Counted from the first letter of the stretch, positions 268-56,613 are shown. The stretch is DNA of 64,000 nucleotides from Thermoanaerobaculia bacterium (GCA_963816185.1 CAWFJJ010000024.1:128001-192000); one strand, 5' to 3'. The notes: generated by a model from the letters alone, not told the origin. Made by a program: numbers and translations.

Positions 268-1845
268 CTAGTCGTACACGCCGTCGGCGAACCACTCGCC
301 GCCGGCCTCGTCGTGGAAGATGCGGTAAAGGCCTCCGCCCGAAAGCTCCACGTCCCAGTACGCGCGGAAGGCGGGTGCCTCCTGCCACCAGCCCTCCTCG
401 AGGCGCCACGGGCCCGAAGCCACGCGCACGGTGCCGGCCACGTCCAGCGCCGGCCGCCCACCGCCGTCTGCGGAAGCGGGTTCGAGCGCGCGCAGCGAAG
501 AGGGCCGCTCGCCCTCGAGAAGCACCTCGAGCGGCACGGGTGGACGGAGCACGCGAACCGAGAGAAGCCCGCGGCCGGTCTTCGGCGTCTTTCGCGCCGC
601 GGGAGGAGGCGGCGGAGCGAACGGCACGAGGGCGAAGCGCTCGGGGCGATGGCCGTCCACGGCGCTCGGCGCGCCGACGCGCCCGGGCCCGAGCAGCGCG
701 AACAGCTTCGCGAGCGCCGTCGCGAGACGGTCGGGCGAGATCTCGGCCGGCCCGAACAGCGTGAGCTGGCTCTTGCGCGGGGCGTCGGGCTGCGCCGTGA
801 GGGAGAAGCCCGTGACGGCGGCGCCCGGCGGCCGGCCTTCGAGGCCGAGGCGCACGAGCGTGAGAAGCGTCTTCACGTCGCGCGTGGGCGCGGGCAGATC
901 CAGGCTGCGCGTGTCGCAGCCCTCGGGGTCGAGCGTCAGGGAGATGTCCAGCCGCGCGCACCCTACGGCCTCCGCCTCGAGACGCCGCGCGAGGCGTTCG
1001 AGCGCGCTCTCGGCGAGCGCGAGGAATGGCTCGAGCGTGACGAGCGGCCACTCCAGCTCCATGCCTTCCGTGAAGCCCGGCGGCGGCCGGCGCGGTACGA
1101 GGGGGCGCGGGTCGCGCCCGCGCGCGATCTCGTGCAGCGCGTGCCCGCGCGCGCCGAGCCGGCTCGCGACGTCGGCCGCGGGCAGCTTCGCGAGGTCGCC
1201 CACCGAGGAGAGGCCCCAGCGCGCGAGCGTCTCGACGATCTCGGCATCGGGATCCAGCTTCGCGAGCGGCAGCGGTGCGAGAAACGCGGCTTCGCCGCCT
1301 GCGGGGACGGCGACGGGAGAGTCCGGCAGCGTCGCGGCCACGCGCGCGGCGAGCTTGCTCGACGCGAGCCCGCAGCGCGCGGGCAGCGACTCGCGCTTCG
1401 CGGCGGCGATCAGGGTGCGGCCGAGATCGCGCTCGTCGGGAAAAAGGCGCTCGAGGCCGTCCGCGTCGAGGTACACGACGCCGTCACCAGCGTCCTCCAC
1501 GCGCGGCGACACGGTGCCGGCCACGTCGAGAAGCGCCTCCATGGCGGCGCGCTCGCTCTCGGCGTCGCGCGCGCGGGTGAGAAGGTCGGGCACGAGCGCC
1601 CGCGCCTGCGGCAGCGTGAAGCCCGGGCGGATGCCGGCCTTGCGCGCCTTGCGCGTGGCCGCGACCACGTGCGCGGCCGTCCCGTTCCCCTCGCACAGAA
1701 TGACCGCCTCGTCCCGCAGCGCGGGCTCGCTGCGCAGCCGCGCGGCGAGGGGAAACAGCGGCACCACGAGACACGCGAGGCGTGGGGCGGGAACGGGAGA
1801 AGGTTGTTTTTGCTGCTCCCCGAGCACGGACGACGTTCGCTCCAT
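268..1845 (-). CDS. imuB: ImuB-like Y-family DNA polymerase homolog (probably catalytically inactive)
   Basis: N-terminal LACLVVPLFPLAA, AGIRPGFTLPQARAL, SPRVE..GDGVVYLD, LARWGLSSVGDL, C-terminal GPWRLEEGWW..YWDVE..GLYRIF; next to imuA. Confidence 0.85.
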   Translation of the reverse strand: MERTSSVLGEQQKQPSPVPAPRLACLVVPLFPLAARLRSEPALRDEAVILCEGNGTAAHVVAATRKARKAGIRPGFTLPQARALVPDLLTRARDAESERAAMEALLDVAGTVSPRVEDAGDGVVYLDADGLERLFPDERDLGRTLIAAAKRESLPARCGLASSKLAARVAATLPDSPVAVPAGGEAAFLAPLPLAKLDPDAEIVETLARWGLSSVGDLAKLPAADVASRLGARGHALHEIARGRDPRPLVPRRPPPGFTEGMELEWPLVTLEPFLALAESALERLARRLEAEAVGCARLDISLTLDPEGCDTRSLDLPAPTRDVKTLLTLVRLGLEGRPPGAAVTGFSLTAQPDAPRKSQLTLFGPAEISPDRLATALAKLFALLGPGRVGAPSAVDGHRPERFALVPFAPPPPPAARKTPKTGRGLLSVRVLRPPVPLEVLLEGERPSSLRALEPASADGGGRPALDVAGTVRVASGPWRLEEGWWQEAPAFRAYWDVELSGGGLYRIFHDEAGGEWFADGVYD

Positions 1846-1973
1846 GCCTGCTGTGCCCCGCTTTTCATCAGGATGTTTTTCTTAGAAGGTGAATATCCCC
1901 GGCTCCAACACCCTCAGCGCGTGAATGCGGACAACCGGCCTGAAAACGCAACGGCGAAGATTTCTTTCTTCTG

Positions 1974-2118
1974 ATATGCGGCGGCTGCAGTTGCAGCCCT
2001 GGCCGGCCTGATTGGACGCGGGGGGTCCGGGGGCGCCCGAAGGCAAGCCCCCGGAGAGCGCGCGCAAGCGCGCCGCGCAGCGGTCTTCGATCCTTGACAT
2101 CGGTCATTCGGGAAATAC
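1974..2118. repeat. Composite hairpin repeat element, copy 1 (small palindrome, 40-bp GC hairpin, 31-nt spacer, right IR arm)
   Basis: atatgcggcggctgc is shared with 15345 and 24024; 2021-2060 is identical to 50399-50438; ccttgacatcggtcattcgggaaatac is identical to 24124-24150. Confidence 0.85.
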
Positions 2119-2131
2119 ACGTTCCCCACAC

Positions 2132-2968
2132 TCAGCGCCCGAATGCGGACAAATGACCGGAGAACAAAGTGGCATGCTCTCTTTCCTTTTCCTCTCTTTC
2201 TAAGAAAATTTTCTTTCTTTCTTCCTTGCCTGTCTGAATCGCATCCAGCAGGGAAAGATTCAGCAGGCTCGTCTTTTCTTTCATCTTCGCGTCCCGCGTC
2301 TTCTCGAGCACGAGGCGTGAGGACAGGCCGTCGAGGAGCGACACGCTCTGCGGCCAGCGGTCCAAGCACGCGCGGTCCCAGCCCGCCCGCGCCGCATCGG
2401 CCGCGAGCACGATGCGCGCCGCGGTGCCTGTGACGCGGTAGGGCGCGAGGACGAGGAGCGCCGCGTCGTGAAAGCGCGCGCGACGCGCGAGGCGCAGCCA
2501 GACGGCGTCGTCGAAACGCCGCCTGAAGATGCGTGAGAGCCCGAGGTCGAGGACGACGAGCGCGAAGCCCGTCGCGAGGACGGTCTCGGCCGCGGCGAGC
2601 GCGGGTTTCAACCCGCGGGGGCGCAGCCACAGCACCCGCGAGAGCTCGGCGCCGGCGGCGGCCGCGCCCTGCGGGTCGAAGTGGTCGCCGGGATCCACGA
2701 GCGCGGCGGCTTCGCCCGTCTGCGTCGTCGCGGCGAGCGCGGAGAGGGCCACCGAGAAGCGGCCCGAGGACATGCGCCCCGACATCTCCACGAGAGCGCC
2801 GCGGGGCAGCCCGCCTCCCAGCAGCCGGTCCAGTCCCTCGATTCGCGTGGGCAGAAACTCCGGCGCGAACCGTTCGCGCGAAAGTCCGGAGGCGGTGGTC
2901 AGCCGGGCGGCGATCTCTCGAGGTAAGTCAGGCAGGGGCAGCGGGGCGGGAAGAGACAGCGCCGACAC
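2132..2968 (-). CDS. imuA: ImuA/RecA-like protein
   Basis: LPTRIEGLDRLLGGGLPRGALVEMSGRMSSGRFS (degenerate Walker A), AALVDPGDHFDP, LVVLDL. Confidence 0.85.
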   Translation of the reverse strand: MSALSLPAPLPLPDLPREIAARLTTASGLSRERFAPEFLPTRIEGLDRLLGGGLPRGALVEMSGRMSSGRFSVALSALAATTQTGEAAALVDPGDHFDPQGAAAAGAELSRVLWLRPRGLKPALAAAETVLATGFALVVLDLGLSRIFRRRFDDAVWLRLARRARFHDAALLVLAPYRVTGTAARIVLAADAARAGWDRACLDRWPQSVSLLDGLSSRLVLEKTRDAKMKEKTSLLNLSLLDAIQTGKEERKKIFLEREEKEREHATLFSGHLSAFGR

Positions 2969-5290: not shown

Positions 5291-6045
5291 GGAAGCTCCA
5301 GGTCGAGCGTGAGATGAAGAAGGGCCGTGAGGTCTCCTTCCGTCGAGACGACTCCCTTCTTGTAGCCTTCGGGGCTGCCCGGCGGCGCATAGAGTCCGGG
5401 GATCGTCCGCGGAGCCACGAGCGCGAGCGTCACGGGATGCGACCCGCGAAACGTCGCGTCCACCGGCACGATCGCGGTCGCGCGCGCGAGCTCCGTCGCG
5501 ATCACCTTCCCGATCTGAACGTGAAGAACCTCTCGTGCCGGAGCCGCGAGAAGCGGAATGCGGCCTACGAACTGCCCGATGACGGTGTTCAGGGCCGCGC
5601 CGAGGATCGGCCCCACGGCGTTCGTGCGCTCGACGAAGAGGCACGCGTGGAGGTTCACATGGCTCGACACTTTCACGGCGCCGCCGAAGAACGGATTCCC
5701 GTTCTGATCGGGCGGGAGATCCGCCGCGGCGATCGTCTGTCCTGAGGACGCCGCGAACGGAAGGTGCGCGGAGGCGAGCGCGGAGCTCTCGCCGGAAGCG
5801 GCCGGGTCGGGGTCCTCGAGCTGAAGGACGAGCGAGAGATCCGTCGCCTTCACGCCTTCGCCGGGCCAGCCGTTGTGCTTCACGTCGATCGAGACGAAGG
5901 AGACGGTGAGAGTTGGGGCGGCGGGAGACGAGGATCTTCTTGCTTTCGGAGCGAGCCGAGAGGGCGAGCCCTTAGCCGGGCGGCTGATCGCAGAGGGTTT
6001 CGGTGGTTTTCTCTTAGAAAGTGAATGGGACCCGGGGTTTCGCAT
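5287..6045 (-). CDS. Hypothetical protein
   Basis: Long ORF with host-like codon usage, stop overlaps the next start, RBS-like GGAGG upstream; no family recognised. Confidence 0.6.
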   Translation of the reverse strand: MRNPGSHSLSKRKPPKPSAISRPAKGSPSRLAPKARRSSSPAAPTLTVSFVSIDVKHNGWPGEGVKATDLSLVLQLEDPDPAASGESSALASAHLPFAASSGQTIAAADLPPDQNGNPFFGGAVKVSSHVNLHACLFVERTNAVGPILGAALNTVIGQFVGRIPLLAAPAREVLHVQIGKVIATELARATAIVPVDATFRGSHPVTLALVAPRTIPGLYAPPGSPEGYKKGVVSTEGDLTALLHLTLDLELP

Positions 6046-6298
6046 CGGGCCTCCTTCCGGCTTCGGCGGCGCCAGCGATTCTTTCACCTTCTAAGAAAAA
6101 TCAACCGTCCCGTTGCTTCGGTGTAGCAAGTCGCGCTGCGGCGGCACCGGCTGCGTCATTCACCCTTCTAAGAAGATCCACTTTGACGGGTTGCTTCGCG
6201 GTAGAACGTCACGAGTCGCCGGGATTCGCCGGAGAGGGAGCAGAAATCCCTTCTGCTCCTTCTGTCCCCGTAGAATCCACCCCTTGCAGGAGGATTCG

Positions 6299-9023: not shown

Positions 9024-11096
9024 ATGCGCGACAAGGACGGCACCGGCGGCAGGGCGGCGGCGGTCCCCGTTCACCTTCTAAGAAAAGCGCCATCGCGCGC
9101 TGCGAGAGGTCTGCTCGTGCGTGCCAGCGGAGCCCGAGGGGTCTTTCTCTTTCTAAGCAGAATCTCTCTCCTCTTCTTCGTCTTCTTCGGACCCATCCCG
9201 GCGCGCGCCGCAGAGAATGTCGTTCTTCCGAACGAGAACCTCGTCGCCGACGGGCTGCCTCCGATCCCGAAGGCGCTGGCGGAGCGCGTTGCGGCGTACA
9301 CGGAGTCGCGGGGTGCGACCTTCGAGGCGTGGCATCCCGTGCGCCGCGAGATGATCATCGGCACGCGCTTCGCCGACGTGCCGCAGATCCACCGGGTGAA
9401 GTTCCCGGGCGGGGCGCGCACGCAGCTCACGTTCTACCAGGAACGCACGGGCGGGGCGAGATTCCGCCCGCTCACCGGCGACGGCTTCGTCTTCAACAAG
9501 GACGTCGGCGGCGGCGAGTGGTACCAGCTCTTCTGGCACGACGAGAAATCCGGCAAGGTCACGATGTTCACGGACGGTAAGTCCCGTAACACGGGCGGAG
9601 ACTTCTCGCATTCCGGCAAGTGGCTCGCGTACCAATCCACGCGGCGGAACGGGAAGGACGACGACGTCTACGTCGTCGACCCCGCCGACCCGAAGACCGA
9701 GAGGAAGGTCCTCGAGGTCTCGGGCGGCGGCTGGGGCGTTTCCGACTGGTCGCCCGACGACAAGACGCTTCTCGTCGGGGAATACATCTCCGCGAACGAG
9801 AGCCGGTACTGGCTCGTGGACGCAACGACGGGCGCGAAGAGCCTCGCGACGCCCGAGTCGAAGGAGAAGGTCGCGTGGGGCCGCGCCGTCTTCGCGAAGG
9901 ACGGGAGGTCTCTCTATACGACGACGGACTCCGGTGCGGAGTTCCACCGCCTCGTCTCTCTCGATCTCGCATCGAAGAAGATCTCCGTGCTGACGCCCGG
10001 CATCGAATGGGACGTGTCCTCGCTCAGCCTCTCCGACGACGGCGGTAAGCTGGCATTCGTCGTGAACGAGGGCGGCGTCGAGACCTTGCACGTCCTCGAC
10101 ACGGCCACGAGAAAGGAGATCGCGCTCCCGAAGATCCCGCTCGGGACGATCGGCGCACTGCGCTTCCACGCGAACGGAAAGGACCTCGCCTTCACGCTGG
10201 CCTCGGCGCGCTCCACTTCCGACGTGTACTCGATCGACGTGACGGCCGGTCCGTCCGGGAAGGTCGAGCGCTGGACGGAGAGCGAGCTGGGCGGCCTCGA
10301 TCCCGCGACCCTCTCCGAGCCCGAGAAGATTTCGTGGAAGAGCTTCGACGGGCGCACGATCACGGGATTCCTCTATCGCCCGCCCGCTTCCTTCCAGGGC
10401 CCGCGCCCCGTGATCGTCAACATCCACGGCGGCCCCGAGGGGCAGTACCAGCCGGGCTTCCTCGGCCGGTACAACTTCTACCTGAACGAGCTCGGGATCG
10501 CGCTGATCTTCCCGAACGTGCGCGGTTCGTCGGGCTTCGGCAAGACCTTCCTCACGCTCGACAACGCGGAAAAGCGCGAGGATTCCGTCAAGGACATCGG
10601 CGCGCTCCTCGACTGGATCGCCGCGCAGCCGTCTCTCGACAAGGGCCGGGTCATGGTGATGGGCGGCTCGTACGGCGGGTACATGACGCTCGCGTCGATG
10701 ACCCATTTCAACGACCGCTTCCGGTGCGCCGTCGACGTCGTCGGAATCTCGAACTGGGTCACGTTCCTCGAGCACACGGAAGGCTACAGGCGCGACTTGC
10801 GACGCGCCGAGTACGGCGACGAGCGGGACCCGAAGATGCGCGAGCGACTGCTCGCGATGTCGCCCCTCACGAACGCCGGCAAGATCACGAAGCCGATGTT
10901 CATCGTCCAGGGCCGGAACGACCCCCGCGTGCCGTACACCGAGGCCGAGCAGATGGTCGCGGCGATCAAGAAGAACGGCGGGCCCGTGTGGTACCTCCTC
11001 GCGAAGGACGAGGGCCACGGCTTCAGCAAGAAGAAGAACCAGGACTTCCAGTTCCTCGCGACGCTGAAGTTCGTCGAGGACCACTTGCTCAAGTAG
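9024..11096 (+). CDS. S9 family prolyl oligopeptidase / acylaminoacyl peptidase (start uncertain)
   Basis: Beta-propeller plus IHGGPE, GGSYGG nucleophile, QGRNDPRVP, DEGHG. Confidence 0.9.
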   Translation: MRDKDGTGGRAAAVPVHLLRKAPSRAARGLLVRASGARGVFLFLSRISLLFFVFFGPIPARAAENVVLPNENLVADGLPPIPKALAERVAAYTESRGATFEAWHPVRREMIIGTRFADVPQIHRVKFPGGARTQLTFYQERTGGARFRPLTGDGFVFNKDVGGGEWYQLFWHDEKSGKVTMFTDGKSRNTGGDFSHSGKWLAYQSTRRNGKDDDVYVVDPADPKTERKVLEVSGGGWGVSDWSPDDKTLLVGEYISANESRYWLVDATTGAKSLATPESKEKVAWGRAVFAKDGRSLYTTTDSGAEFHRLVSLDLASKKISVLTPGIEWDVSSLSLSDDGGKLAFVVNEGGVETLHVLDTATRKEIALPKIPLGTIGALRFHANGKDLAFTLASARSTSDVYSIDVTAGPSGKVERWTESELGGLDPATLSEPEKISWKSFDGRTITGFLYRPPASFQGPRPVIVNIHGGPEGQYQPGFLGRYNFYLNELGIALIFPNVRGSSGFGKTFLTLDNAEKREDSVKDIGALLDWIAAQPSLDKGRVMVMGGSYGGYMTLASMTHFNDRFRCAVDVVGISNWVTFLEHTEGYRRDLRRAEYGDERDPKMRERLLAMSPLTNAGKITKPMFIVQGRNDPRVPYTEAEQMVAAIKKNGGPVWYLLAKDEGHGFSKKKNQDFQFLATLKFVEDHLLK

Positions 11097-15130: not shown

Positions 15131-16179
15131 TGCTCACGCTGCCGCCGATGGACCTCGGGCTCGTGGTGCGCAGCCACGGCTGGTACGACTTGCCTCCATT
15201 CGAATGGGACGCGAAAGAAAAGACCCTGGGATTGATTTTCTTAGAAGGAGAATGCCCCGTACGAGTCGAGGTGGCGGAGCAGCCGGGCGGACTGGTTGCT
15301 CAGGCTCGGGCCATCGCGCCTTCGGCGCGGGAGACCGATTTCTCATATGCGGCGGCTGCTGTGCAGCCGCCGATAGCAGCAAATCTGTCCTCGGATGGCG
15401 GGAGTCAAGGGCGCGCTGCGCGCGCCGCGAAGCGGTCGAAGACCCTTGACACCCGCCTTCCGAGGAAGATCTCTTTCTCTTTCAAAGCAAATCTCTCTTC
15501 GGACGTTCCATCCGAGGCCTCGGTTCGTCGTGCGCTGGAACGGGTCCTCGATCTGAAAGCGGATCTTTCTTCTTTCCACTCCCTCTGCGCCGGGGACCCG
15601 CGCTTCGCGTGGGTCGCCCGGCGCGGGGCGGGGCGGATCCTGCGCGCGCCGACTCTGTTCGAGGACGCCGTAAAGGTCCTCGCGACGACGAACTGCACCT
15701 GGGGTCTGACGAAGCTCATGGTGAACAATCTGATCGAACGCTTCGATCGGGGCGGGGCATTTCCGGATGCGCCCTTCGTCGCGGGCCTTTCCGCGCGCTC
15801 TCTCGCCGCTGCGAAATGGGGTTACCGTGCGCCTTATCTCACCGCGTTCGCGCGGCGCGTCGCCTCGGGAAAGCTGGATCTCGCGCGCTGGGAGGATCCG
15901 GACCTTCCCGACGAGGAGGTCGAGAAGGAGATCCGCGCGGAGAAAGGCTTCGGCCCTTATGCCGCCGACACGCTGGGGCGGCTTCTCGGGCGGCACCGCA
16001 AGCTGGGCCTCGACGCCTGGTCTCGCAAGAAGGTCGCGACCCTGAGGTTTCGGGGCCGCGCCGTGAAGGACGCGCGCGTCGCGCGCTTCTACGCGTCGTT
16101 CGGACCGCACGCGGGCCTCGCGTTCTGGCTCGACATGACGCACGACTGGCACGAGGAGAAGGAGACCGTGTGGCCCTGA
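15127..16179 (+). CDS. HhH-GPD DNA glycosylase (AlkA/Ogg-like) with an in-frame repeat insertion
   Basis: SHGW.DLPPF, GRILRAPTLFEDAVKVLATTNCTW, WGYRA, KGFGPYAA. Confidence 0.8.
   Translation: MMLTLPPMDLGLVVRSHGWYDLPPFEWDAKEKTLGLIFLEGECPVRVEVAEQPGGLVAQARAIAPSARETDFSYAAAAVQPPIAANLSSDGGSQGRAARAAKRSKTLDTRLPRKISFSFKANLSSDVPSEASVRRALERVLDLKADLSSFHSLCAGDPRFAWVARRGAGRILRAPTLFEDAVKVLATTNCTWGLTKLMVNNLIERFDRGGAFPDAPFVAGLSARSLAAAKWGYRAPYLTAFARRVASGKLDLARWEDPDLPDEEVEKEIRAEKGFGPYAADTLGRLLGRHRKLGLDAWSRKKVATLRFRGRAVKDARVARFYASFGPHAGLAFWLDMTHDWHEEKETVWP
15345..15466. repeat. Composite hairpin repeat element, copy 2 (in frame inside the glycosylase)
   Basis: 24-bp IR 15388-15411 / 15443-15466 (22 of 24 paired), 31-nt spacer, preceded by gcggcggctgctgtgcagccgccg. 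Confidence 0.85.
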
Positions 16180-49239: not shown

Positions 49240-50385
49240 TCATCGTCGACGACGAGGATCGCGAGAACGAGGGCGACCTCTGCCTCGCGGCCGAGTACGT
49301 CACGCCGGCCGCGATCAACTTCATGGCCCGCGAGGGCCGCGGGCTCGTCTGCGTCTCGCTTGACGGAGGAGCGCTGCGACGAGCTGGATCTGCACCCGAT
49401 GGTCGAGCAGAACACGTCCAATTACGGGACGGCCTTCACCGTGTCCGTCGAGGCGCGCGGCAAGACCACGACCGGCATCTCGGCGGCCGACCGCGCGGTG
49501 ACGGTGAAGACGCTCATCGACCCGAAGACGAAGCCGCAAGACCTGCTGCGGCCCGGCCACACGTTCCCGCTGAGGGCGAGGAAGGGCGGCGTCCTCAAGC
49601 GGGCGGGCCAGACGGAGGCGTCCGTCGACCTCGCGCGCATCGCCGGCCTCATGCCCGCCGCCGTCATCTGCGAGATCATGAACGAGGACGGGACGATGGC
49701 CCGCGTGCCGGATCTCCTCGTCTTCTCGGAGAAGCACGGCGTCCCGATCGTCTCGGTGGCCGACATCATCCGCCACAGGATGCGCACGGAGCGCCTCGTG
49801 CAGCGCATCGCGTCCCCCACGCTGCCGACGCGCCACGGCTCGTTCCGCGTCGTCGCCTATCGGTCCGACGTCACGCACGAGGAGCACGTGGCGCTCGTGG
49901 CGGGAGAGTGGAGCGAGGACGAGCCCGTCCTCGTCCGCGTGCACTCCTCCTGCCTCACCGGCGACGTCTTCGGCTCGGAGCGCTGCGACTGCGGGGCGCA
50001 GCTCGAGCGCGCGATGGAGCTGATCGCGCGGGAGGGAAAGGGCGTGCTCCTCTATCTCCTTCAGGAGGGCCGCGGCATCGGCCTCGTGAACAAGCTGCGC
50101 GCCTACGAGCTGCAGGAGCAGGGCCTCGACACCGTCGCCGCGAACGAGAAGCTCGGCTTCGCGCCCGACGTCCGTGACTACGGCATCGGCTGCCAGATCC
50201 TGCGGGACCTCGGCGTGCGGAAGATCCGCCTCCTCACGAACAACCCGTCCAAGTACGTCGCGATCGACGGCTACGGCCTCGAGATCGTCGAGCGCGTCCC
50301 GCTCGAGATCCCTCCCACGGACGGCACGCGCGACTACCTGACCACGAAAAAAGCGAAGATGGGTCATATATTGAAATTGGTATGA
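49182..50385 (+). CDS. ribBA: Bifunctional DHBP synthase / GTP cyclohydrolase II (one indel)
   Basis: [44 protein letters not shown]. Confidence 0.95.
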
Positions 50386-50398
50386 GCAGCTTCGGCCC

Positions 50399-50438
50399 GG
50401 GGGTCCGGGGGCGCCCGAAGGCAAGCCCCCGGAGAGCG
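50399..50438. repeat. 40-bp REP-like GC hairpin, identical to 2021-2060
   Basis: GGGGGTCCGGGGGCGCCCGAAGGCAAGCCCCCGGAGAGCG; TCCGGGGGC/GCCCCCGGA stem. Confidence 0.88.
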
Positions 50439-50521
50439 ATGGGGCACATCCTGAAGCTGGTCTAGAGGCGCAGGGGGAGGGGTCCGGGGATCTTAGAAGG
50501 AAGGGCCTGTGCGAGCGGCCG

Positions 50522-56056: not shown

Positions 56057-56613
56057 GGTCGTCCTCCTCGTCACCGGCGCCCACGAATCCGGCAAGACGA
56101 CGGTCGCCGTGAAGCTCATCGAGGCGTTCGTGAAGGCCGGGCTCGAGTGTGGGCTCCCTCAAGCACACGGACCACGAGTACGAGACGGACGCCCCCGGCA
56201 AGGACTCGCAGCGCCACAAGGCGGCGGGCGCCGAACCCGCGGTCCTCGTCGCCGGGCGGAGAAGCGCGGTGCATCGCGGGCCATCGGAGACTTCTGCTTC
56301 GGACCCGGGTGCGGGCGCCGGCGAGGCTCGCGAGAGACCAGCTCTGTCCGTTTTCTTAGAAGGGGAATATGGGCTTGGCTCGTGTGACATCGTCGTCGTC
56401 GAGGGGTTCCGAAGCGAGGCGTATCCGAAGATCGAAGTCTGCCGCGCGGCCACTGGCCGCGCGGCACTCTGCGAGAACGATCCAAACGTCGTCGCCGTCG
56501 TGACCGACCGGCCGACGAATCACCCTTCTTCCATTCCCCGATTCACTTTCGAAGAAATCCCCGGTTCCCTTCTTCCCTTTCTAAGAAGATCTTCAATTCT
56601 CTTTTCTCTCTAA
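56057..56613 (+). CDS. mobB: Molybdopterin-guanine dinucleotide biosynthesis MobB domain (no start codon of its own; indels)
   Basis: GAHESGKTT, KHTDH, GKDS.RH, DIVVVEGF..PKIEV. Confidence 0.8.

Follow-up and report, generated by a model that had tools for sequence, protein, structure and literature searches.

A displaced second copy of the imuA gene end in a Thermoanaerobaculia genome, a probable relic of an old palindromic repeat insertion

We analysed a 64,000-nt stretch of a Thermoanaerobaculia genome (hereafter, the window; G000:C24:128001-192000, GCA_963816185.1 CAWFJJ010000024.1), in which the junction of the mutagenesis genes imuA and imuB holds a second copy of the imuA 3' end, separated from the first by a short composite repeat. 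All positions are counted in the window. The genome is that of a soil acidobacterium and its assembly totals 5.09 Mb in 30 contigs, with 67% GC, 94.9% completeness and 3.4% contamination. imuA (2132-2968, minus strand; called as an open reading frame (ORF) and matched to orthologues) encodes a RecA-fold SOS mutagenesis protein of 278 aa (Pfam RecA, E 2.3e-10), and imuB (268-1845, minus strand; ORF call) encodes a Y-family polymerase-like protein of 525 aa (Pfam IMS, E 1.3e-20). Both are DNA-repair genes, and imuB orthologues (78-95% identity) adjoin imuA in 17 relatives. The gap from imuA to imuB is 286 nt in G000. Read from imuA, the functional 3' end of the gene comes first (hereafter, the near copy; 2119-2185, minus strand), with its stop at 2132-2134, ~13 nt past the stop, and a remainder reading ...HATLFSGHLSAFGR. 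It is followed by an inserted composite repeat of 154 nt (1965-2118, plus strand), a displaced duplicate of the imuA 3' end (hereafter, the far copy; 1901-1964, minus strand) with its stop at 1914-1916, ~13 nt past it and a remainder reading AVAFSGRLSAFTR, and the conserved imuB leader (1846-1900, minus strand).

The near copy reads TTC TCC GGT CAT TTG TCC GCA TTC GGG CGC TGA (FSGHLSAFGR*) and the far copy TTT TCA GGC CGG TTG TCC GCA TTC ACG CGC TGA (FSGRLSAFTR*). The F, S and G codons differ synonymously, as a preliminary description of this DNA had stated when it reported both strings, and the H/R and G/T replacements are non-synonymous. A repeat search paired 1909-1947 with 2127-2165 (39 nt, 79% identity, spacing 218). 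Gapped local alignment widened the match to 1909-1968 versus 2127-2185, with a score of 52 that was reached by 0 of 200 shuffles, and end-free alignment of 1901-1964 with 2119-2182, the ~13 nt past the stop included, gave 44 matches and 18 mismatches. Overall, the two copies are 71-79% identical over 39-60 nt. The core 12-mer GAATGCGGACAA occurs twice in the window (0.19 expected), and at least two matches were seen in 1 of 100 shuffles. No reading frame enters the far copy from imuA.

A blastn-short search of the whole 5.09-Mb genome with 1846-2300 (E<1) found no further copy of 1894-1957 or 2119-2192, and the duplicated imuA segment is therefore no fixed part of a repeat. The preliminary description had left room for the ctcagcgc..gaatgcggacaa segment belonging to the repeat itself; the 12 other complete copies of the BC repeat family in G000 lack it. 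Given that the similarity is also better than chance, the duplication is a real feature, and it is unique to this locus.

The material between the copies was identified through genome-wide matches of its modules and by alignment with three standard members of the repeat family that we call BC. It consists of a half-palindrome B (1965-1998; the B core, ATATGCGGCGGCTGC, has 30 matches in G000), a linker (1999-2020), a 40-nt hairpin (hereafter, H; 2021-2060), and part of a palindrome C, namely its inner hairpin and a single arm (2061-2118). In the alignment, the insert is a BC element in which the middle has been exchanged for the linker and H. H is 100% identical to 50399-50438 beside ribBA, just as the preliminary description had it. 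The same BC+H variant lies at C25:499782-499928 (90% identity over 1969-2117) and in the relatives' loci L047, L048, L051 and L055; the insert is made wholly of repeat modules that occur dozens of times in the genome. The duplicates touch both ends of the composite (far copy at 1964/1965; near copy and its post-stop part at 2118/2119), so that at imuA they abut the ends of the 154-nt repeat, not H itself. The ORF call on the insert yielded no ORF, integrase or other mobility gene, a consensus scan of it found no promoter and no intrinsic terminator, and its predicted RNA fold is no better than that of shuffles (z -0.81). Rfam gave 0 matches at E<=1 in 1700-2400, and the standard BC copies yield sub-threshold chance matches only, by which a known RNA family was ruled out as the identity of the insert.

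To place the two copies in an evolutionary frame, imuA homologues were sought in relatives, and the junctions were read in 18 loci holding both imuA and imuB. The same imuA terminal motif or a close variant (e.g. AFSGHLSAFGR*, SFSGHLSALGR*, GFSDRLSAFAR*) is present in 9 of 17 relatives. At five loci (L002, L005, L007, L008 and L012), a single imuA end is followed by a gap of 70-96 nt and then imuB. The spacer at these loci is the GGGGATATTCACCTTCTAAGAAA...GGCACAGCAGGCATG leader, which follows the far copy in G000; the junction comparison that the preliminary description proposed thus gives five relatives with a single end and then the conserved leader. Because the same leader follows the relatives' single imuA end, the far copy is in the ancestral position. 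The direct repeats flanking the insert correspond to a single copy at the empty site of these five relatives. In all eight relatives compared, the single imuA end is equally far from the near copy and from the far copy (13 and 12 mismatches, respectively, for G003), which fits two copies diverging from one origin.

One relative, G007 (L003), has the insertion too. It has the same right junction, at which the B end is joined to TTCGCCGTTGCG..., and its far copy is orthologous to that of G000: it is nearly identical, R and T codons included, and has a frameshifting 1-nt insertion. On the near side, ~15 nt match the beginning of the near copy, after which the sequence jumps into the C palindrome, and for this reason imuA of G007 ends in element-encoded residues. 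The far copy together with the ~15-nt near-copy remnant points to a near copy, insert, far copy order in the common ancestor. The simplest reading of these sequences is that G000 and G007 inherited that arrangement and that G007 would later have suffered a deletion. Other junctions are altered as well. The imuA tail of G008 (L011) is frameshifted, with the conserved end out of frame, and a deletion in G017 (L004) joins the imuA end to imuB near codon 9. The imuA-imuB junction is unstable across the genus.

The preliminary description had also taken a reverse/forward motif pair as part of the unit, because it brackets the insert (1877-1892 and 2193-2208, 16 nt, 88% complementary). This part of the description does not hold, as both copies of the motif (hereafter, motif A) are ancestral and lie at a spacing of ~100 nt in relatives that are free of the insertion. 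The downstream copy (1879-1892, plus strand; TCACCTTCTAAGAA on the gene strand) is the one upstream of imuB (TCACCTTCTAAGAAA) and sits in the imuB leader. The upstream copy (2193-2206, minus strand) is translated in frame as IFLERE inside the Lys/Glu-rich imuA tail; the copy in this tail codes IFLERE or ICLERE, in relatives lacking the insertion it reads IFLE, ICLE or similar, and the tail is kept in relatives as KIFLE, KICLE or KDLLR. With the form TTCTTAGAAGGTGA, 13 matches were found in the window at <=2 mismatches (0.1 expected), including sites at 1879-1892, 2193-2206, 6011-6097, 9071-9084, 15238-15251 and 56353-56587, and 168 in the genome at <=1 mismatch. Its pairs are convergent in 61 cases versus 2 divergent genome-wide; they are mostly spaced by 60-100 nt and enclose unique sequence. 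Where the context was read, motif pairs enclose the last codons and stop of a gene, with the upstream arm translated. The BC/H insertion appears to have landed within one such pre-existing convergent pair.

The behaviour of H at other loci bears directly on the origin of the imuA duplicate. Among 29 genomes of the genus, 9 contain H (<=3 mismatches). The exact degenerate pattern was found in 15 stretches of one-per-species genomes and in 18 of metagenome contigs; the former belong to Thermoanaerobaculia/Acidobacteriota metagenome-assembled genomes, bar two contigs of one labelled Acidithiobacillales. H is a mobile element restricted to one genus of Thermoanaerobaculia. The 25 distinct genome sites include 6 composites and 3 that represent one conserved site upstream of a gene. 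At 9 of the 25, a duplicate of the flank that beats 200/200 shuffles starts 0-2 nt past the 3' end of H, and 3 further duplicates were seen by eye; in metagenome contigs, 15 of the 18 sites have a duplicate abutting H. The preliminary description had called imuA a second case of gene end, hairpin insert and diverged gene end, and the pattern proves to be general. Perfect duplicates were found at four sites (21 nt on both sides of H at L140, 24 nt at L141 in pstB, 29 nt at L150 and 16 nt at L151), and L142 has a 44-nt duplicate with 2 mismatches. Two tandem H copies at L142 are split by a 44-nt unit of gene end plus spacer, giving three copies of one gene end, an array suggestive of either tandem amplification or more than one insertion at the same target.

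At H sites, the far copy precisely abuts H, and 0-25 nt separate the near copy from it. The extra near-side bases are at times diverged post-stop target (L154) and, in one subfamily, a conserved 5' extension of the element. In our unscored reading, the duplicated segment includes the stop codon at nearly all solo H sites, and H and the gene point the same way at >=13 of 17 distinct sites, with imuA an exception. H makes long target duplications at these other gene ends, and that the duplicates at H sites arose at insertion is well supported. The two positions that distinguish the two main apical-loop variants of H, GCGCCCGAAGGC and GCGCGCGAAGCC, would by eye keep a C:G or G:C pair, which hints at selection on structure. 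Gene-end duplication is not confined to H, since a copy without it was found at L160 (G000:C25:146600-147000; ~146770-146850, minus strand), where the MsrB-like end MKFVPAK* is duplicated 28 nt downstream as LKFVPAK* (4 synonymous differences), the two being separated by a short insert other than H.

The same survey speaks to site-specific integration. Tyrosine-recombinase elements that integrate at gene 3' ends leave a replacement end, the insert and the displaced original end, which is the layout seen here, and an element with an attP-like imuA 3' end could have integrated and later been lost save for ~150 nt, the two ends being attL and attR. One duplicated target is in fact part of a tRNA gene: at L152, H adjoins a tRNA gene on the opposite strand and >=33 nt of the tRNA 5' half are duplicated on the far side. 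However, no integrase lies in or beside the 154-nt insert, which is composed entirely of multicopy repeat modules. The duplication length varies from site to site (16, 21, 24, 29, >=33 and 44 nt at young sites, ~60 nt at imuA), and the target sequences are mutually unrelated, which together exclude a single att core. We regard an integration scar as improbable.

Chance similarity, or an artefact of metagenome assembly at the repeat, is the least credible explanation of all. An artefact could be suspected from the 30 contigs and 3.4% contamination of the assembly, from a contig (C14) with a second, 95% identical ribBA region, and from the breaking of short public contigs at repeat modules. Chance is countered by the shuffling result given above. 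As to assembly, a Logan contig of run X1 spans 1730-1968 with 0 differences, confirming the far copy and both its neighbours, and the far-copy junction is also present in the independent assembly of G007. The architecture of gene end, H and gene end recurs in >=20 independent assemblies.

Taken together, these data suggest that the imuA duplication is the relic of an old repeat insertion accompanied by a long duplication of its target, which spared the imuA end and the imuB leader; we give this reading a probability of roughly 0.62. A non-autonomous palindromic repeat, the 154-nt BC family member carrying the 40-nt H, would have inserted at the imuA-imuB junction in the common ancestor of G000 and G007. 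The insertion would have duplicated ~50-60 nt of target, comprising the last ~16 imuA codons, the stop and ~13 nt beyond. The near copy would have stayed joined to imuA, keeping its reading frame and stop, the far copy would have remained with the imuB leader as a non-coding relic, and both may then have diverged to ~71% identity. The duplication probably arose at the insertion and not later. The insertion would have been tolerated because so long a duplication spares both the imuA end and the region upstream of imuB.

Several observations weigh against this reading. A flanking duplication was found in 1 of the 13 complete BC copies of G000, the imuA one, and at the other 12 the observed score was reached by 6 to 190 of 200 shuffles, so long duplications are not the rule for the BC family. 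It is H, and not a composite, that the duplicate abuts at solo sites. H is missing from the insert of G007, which is built from a full C palindrome plus two B units. In addition, the segment running from the imuA end through the leader to the imuB start is present at the G007 locus in two diverged versions, as a nested tandem. Short Logan contigs break at the repeat modules. No independent public contig covers 2078-2211, and the near-copy junction is consequently read from the G000 assembly alone. Finally, no candidate for the mobilising enzyme was found in G000.

The search for such an enzyme covered several candidates. Pfam PF01797 (Y1/RAYT) gave 0 matches in G000, and the same control search was positive in 6 of 14 genomes. 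H arms paired 30-6000 nt apart, other than in the hairpins themselves, were absent from G000, ruling out a longer autonomous element bounded by H arms within 6 kb in this genome. The one PF01609 (DDE_Tnp_1) match in G000 lies on C30 in an element with ends unrelated to H and BC, by which it was ruled out as their mobiliser. The sole reverse transcriptase (RT) of G000 (L155, C30:282278-285898) is a retron-type fusion of 571 aa, with a C-terminal region that by eye resembles a trypsin-type protease. No H-like sequence lies upstream of this gene and no Rfam match was obtained, and the multicopy single-stranded DNA of a retron was ruled out as the source of H. A template/variable repeat pair of a diversity-generating retroelement was likewise ruled out, as the sole RT is on C30, with none in the region of the window, and the differences show no restriction to adenines: those between the copies at imuA and ribBA include C/T, G/A, C/A and G/T, in both directions.

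The main rival to insertion with target duplication is a recombination join between lineages. On this view, illegitimate or one-sided homologous recombination would have brought in one imuA end and the repeat from a different lineage, the palindromic repeat lying at the join, and the two copies would be alleles of different ancestry. The tandem in G007 looks like the product of such recombination at the imuA-imuB spot, for one of its versions (v1) is G000-like and the other (v2) is G011/G003-like. In the first version of the tandem, the imuB ATG is altered to GAG. Similar signs come from L054 in G003, where the near and far copies differ at 7 nt, all synonymous, an outcome matched by 0 of 5000 random placements. 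The relatives closest to this locus change across H, ranking G011 (91%), G043 (89%) and G021 (84%) upstream, and G021 (87%), G043 (84%) and G011 (79%) downstream.

The ribBA locus of G000, which as a companion case of a duplicated gene end is stronger than imuA, also supports import. The near copy (50359-50385) and far copy (50439-50465) differ in 7 of 8 codons, all synonymously. Compared with G003, differences number 11 in 347 upstream nt, 1 in the 27 nt of the far copy, and 13 in the last 39 nt up to and including the near stop (Fisher p 1.7e-8), corresponding to a divergence of 33% for the gene-attached copy, 3% for the background and 4% for the displaced copy. The near copy has derived codons in common with the near copy of L076, in another genome. 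Within the ribBA end (window 50347-50465), every changeable codon of the gene-attached copy is recoded, synonymously and AT-ward, and the recoding reaches 12 nt further upstream than the duplication. The far copy is the native end of the relatives (25 loci read; H is found there only in G000). Conversion of the near copy from a paralogue on C30 was ruled out, as the paralogue end differs. The second ribBA region on C14 (4400-6560 of a 45-kb contig) is without the hairpin and may represent a second strain in the bin or a recent duplication. The asymmetry at L054 is opposite to that at ribBA.

Against import as the general explanation, target duplication directly accounts for the young H insertions with perfect duplicates. 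At imuA, neither copy looks foreign, as both stand equally far from the eight relatives, and lineage variants are common to both copies of one genome elsewhere (HL at L154, AGA at L141). A recombination import at imuA therefore seems to us unlikely, although it deserves serious consideration.

The codons of the duplicated ends bear on whether the displaced copy could be a functional alternative C-terminus, that is, a maintained second ending swapped in by repeat deletion, read-through or bypassing. We tabulated near and far codons at 14 sites (113 codons), with segments defined by coordinates from the stored loci. In total, 42 codons are identical, 55 differ synonymously and 16 non-synonymously (3 of these from a 1-nt deletion in one far copy), and nucleotide differences at codon positions 1/2/3 number 22/11/63; at 7 of the sites, none of the 3-7 differing codons is non-synonymous. 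Older pairs at H sites show almost exclusively synonymous differences. The synonymous excess would suit a maintained ending, and the preliminary description had hinted that the synonymous differences at imuA imply two maintained C-termini. For imuA, this was overstated. Its 13 codons comprise 6 identical ones, 3 with synonymous and 4 with non-synonymous changes, and the differences are spread 3/4/4 over the codon positions with no third-position excess; such even divergence is what an old relic of an insertion should show. Besides, in G007 the far copy is frameshifted and most of the near copy is lost, by spacer counts only 2 of 12 solo sites have the far copy in the frame of the near stop, and the window repeat search revealed no signals of inversion or site-specific recombination. 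A functional second ending is highly improbable, and the second imuA C-terminus is best regarded as a relic and not a second product.

At sites with near-exclusively synonymous differences, simple drift in place fails as an explanation, because a neutral far copy should carry most of the differences, and at random codon positions. Allele import by recombination, copy conversion or selection on the gene-attached target may be responsible. The imuA locus does not share this puzzle, given its 3 synonymous versus 4 non-synonymous codons. A bolder and rather doubtful proposal is that H and the H-bearing composites are a gene-end-seeking mobile element, which would insert after stops along the gene and rebuild the end by a long staggered duplication, the gene-attached copy then being rapidly recoded by synonymous changes, which would reach a few codons beyond the duplication on its upstream side, and the displaced copy staying ancestral. 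Such recoding would fit an intact target that is attacked again and escapes by synonymous mutations only or, alternatively, a recoded end and hairpin moving between genomes as a homology-guided cassette. Should the proposal be true, imuA would be an old composite example of such an insertion.

The features of H and BC partly overlap those of several known systems. REP, BIME and REPIN sequences are short GC-rich imperfect palindromes, arranged as mosaics, extragenic after genes, present in dozens of copies and mobilised by RAYT transposases. H and BC resemble them in being short GC-rich imperfect palindromes that form module mosaics after genes in dozens of copies. To our knowledge, however, REPs make no target duplication, whereas young H copies have perfect duplicates of 16-29 nt; the RAYT (Y1_Tnp) domain has no match in G000, and by unscored inspection H has no obvious GTAG or CGTC tag. 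Miniature inverted-repeat transposable elements (MITEs) are likewise small, non-autonomous inverted-repeat elements with flanking target duplications, but these duplications are short and of fixed length. The ~threefold variation found here, with 0-25 extra nt at one junction, and the lack of a partner element in G000 indicate that H/BC is not a standard MITE.

Elements of the att type share with the H loci a gene with an intact end, an insert and a displaced gene end, and differ from them in that no integrase and no common core were found here, and in the variable length and many unrelated targets of the duplications. Target-primed reverse transcription by retrotransposons without long terminal repeats (non-LTR) leaves variable target duplications, one precise and one ragged junction, and an orientation bias. 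H resembles this process in footprint only, with its variable duplications, its orientation bias relative to transcription, its precise 3' junction (far copy 0-2 nt after) and its other junction ragged with extra bases. Unlike non-LTR elements, H lacks both a poly-A or other 3' tail and a linked RT, as the retron-type RT of G000 is unrelated.

Two published systems share the long duplications. One report (PMC2853133) describes restriction-modification units flanked by repeats of ~45-49 bp, some of which overlap gene 3' ends, with no mobility gene. The imuA repeat is likewise >30 bp (39-60 nt), unique in the genome and around an insert without a mobility gene, and both cases have a single-copy empty site and can involve the 3' end of a neighbouring gene. 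Those inserts are kilobase gene units seen as single events, whereas here a multicopy palindromic repeat of 40-154 nt recurs at gene ends. Another report (PMC2266710) gives direct repeats of 8-514 bp for the insertion sequences IS1549 and IS1634, with no model of the mechanism put forward by then. The long variable duplications are a common trait (16 to ~60 nt here), but IS1549 and IS1634 are 1.5-2-kb elements with a DDE transposase and terminal inverted repeats, and the search of G000 turned up no such transposase with matching ends. Our literature word searches, too few to show that the arrangement is unpublished, found no hairpin element with duplicated gene ends.

For the organism, the consequence at imuA is modest: the mutagenesis operon is split by 286 nt versus ~70 nt, with the ImuA frame and the imuB leader both preserved. 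Taken by itself, imuA is a moderately interesting case. The behaviour of the H family, with H repeatedly placed directly behind stop codons and flanked by duplicated gene ends, and the synonymous recoding matter more. H offers a natural system for studying the origin of long variable-duplication insertions, a footprint known for decades without a mechanism, and it shows how such insertions enter dense operons without breaking genes. The near-exclusive synonymous divergence at some of its sites could reveal a targeted conflict between element and host, or a homology-guided spread of tiny elements between genomes.

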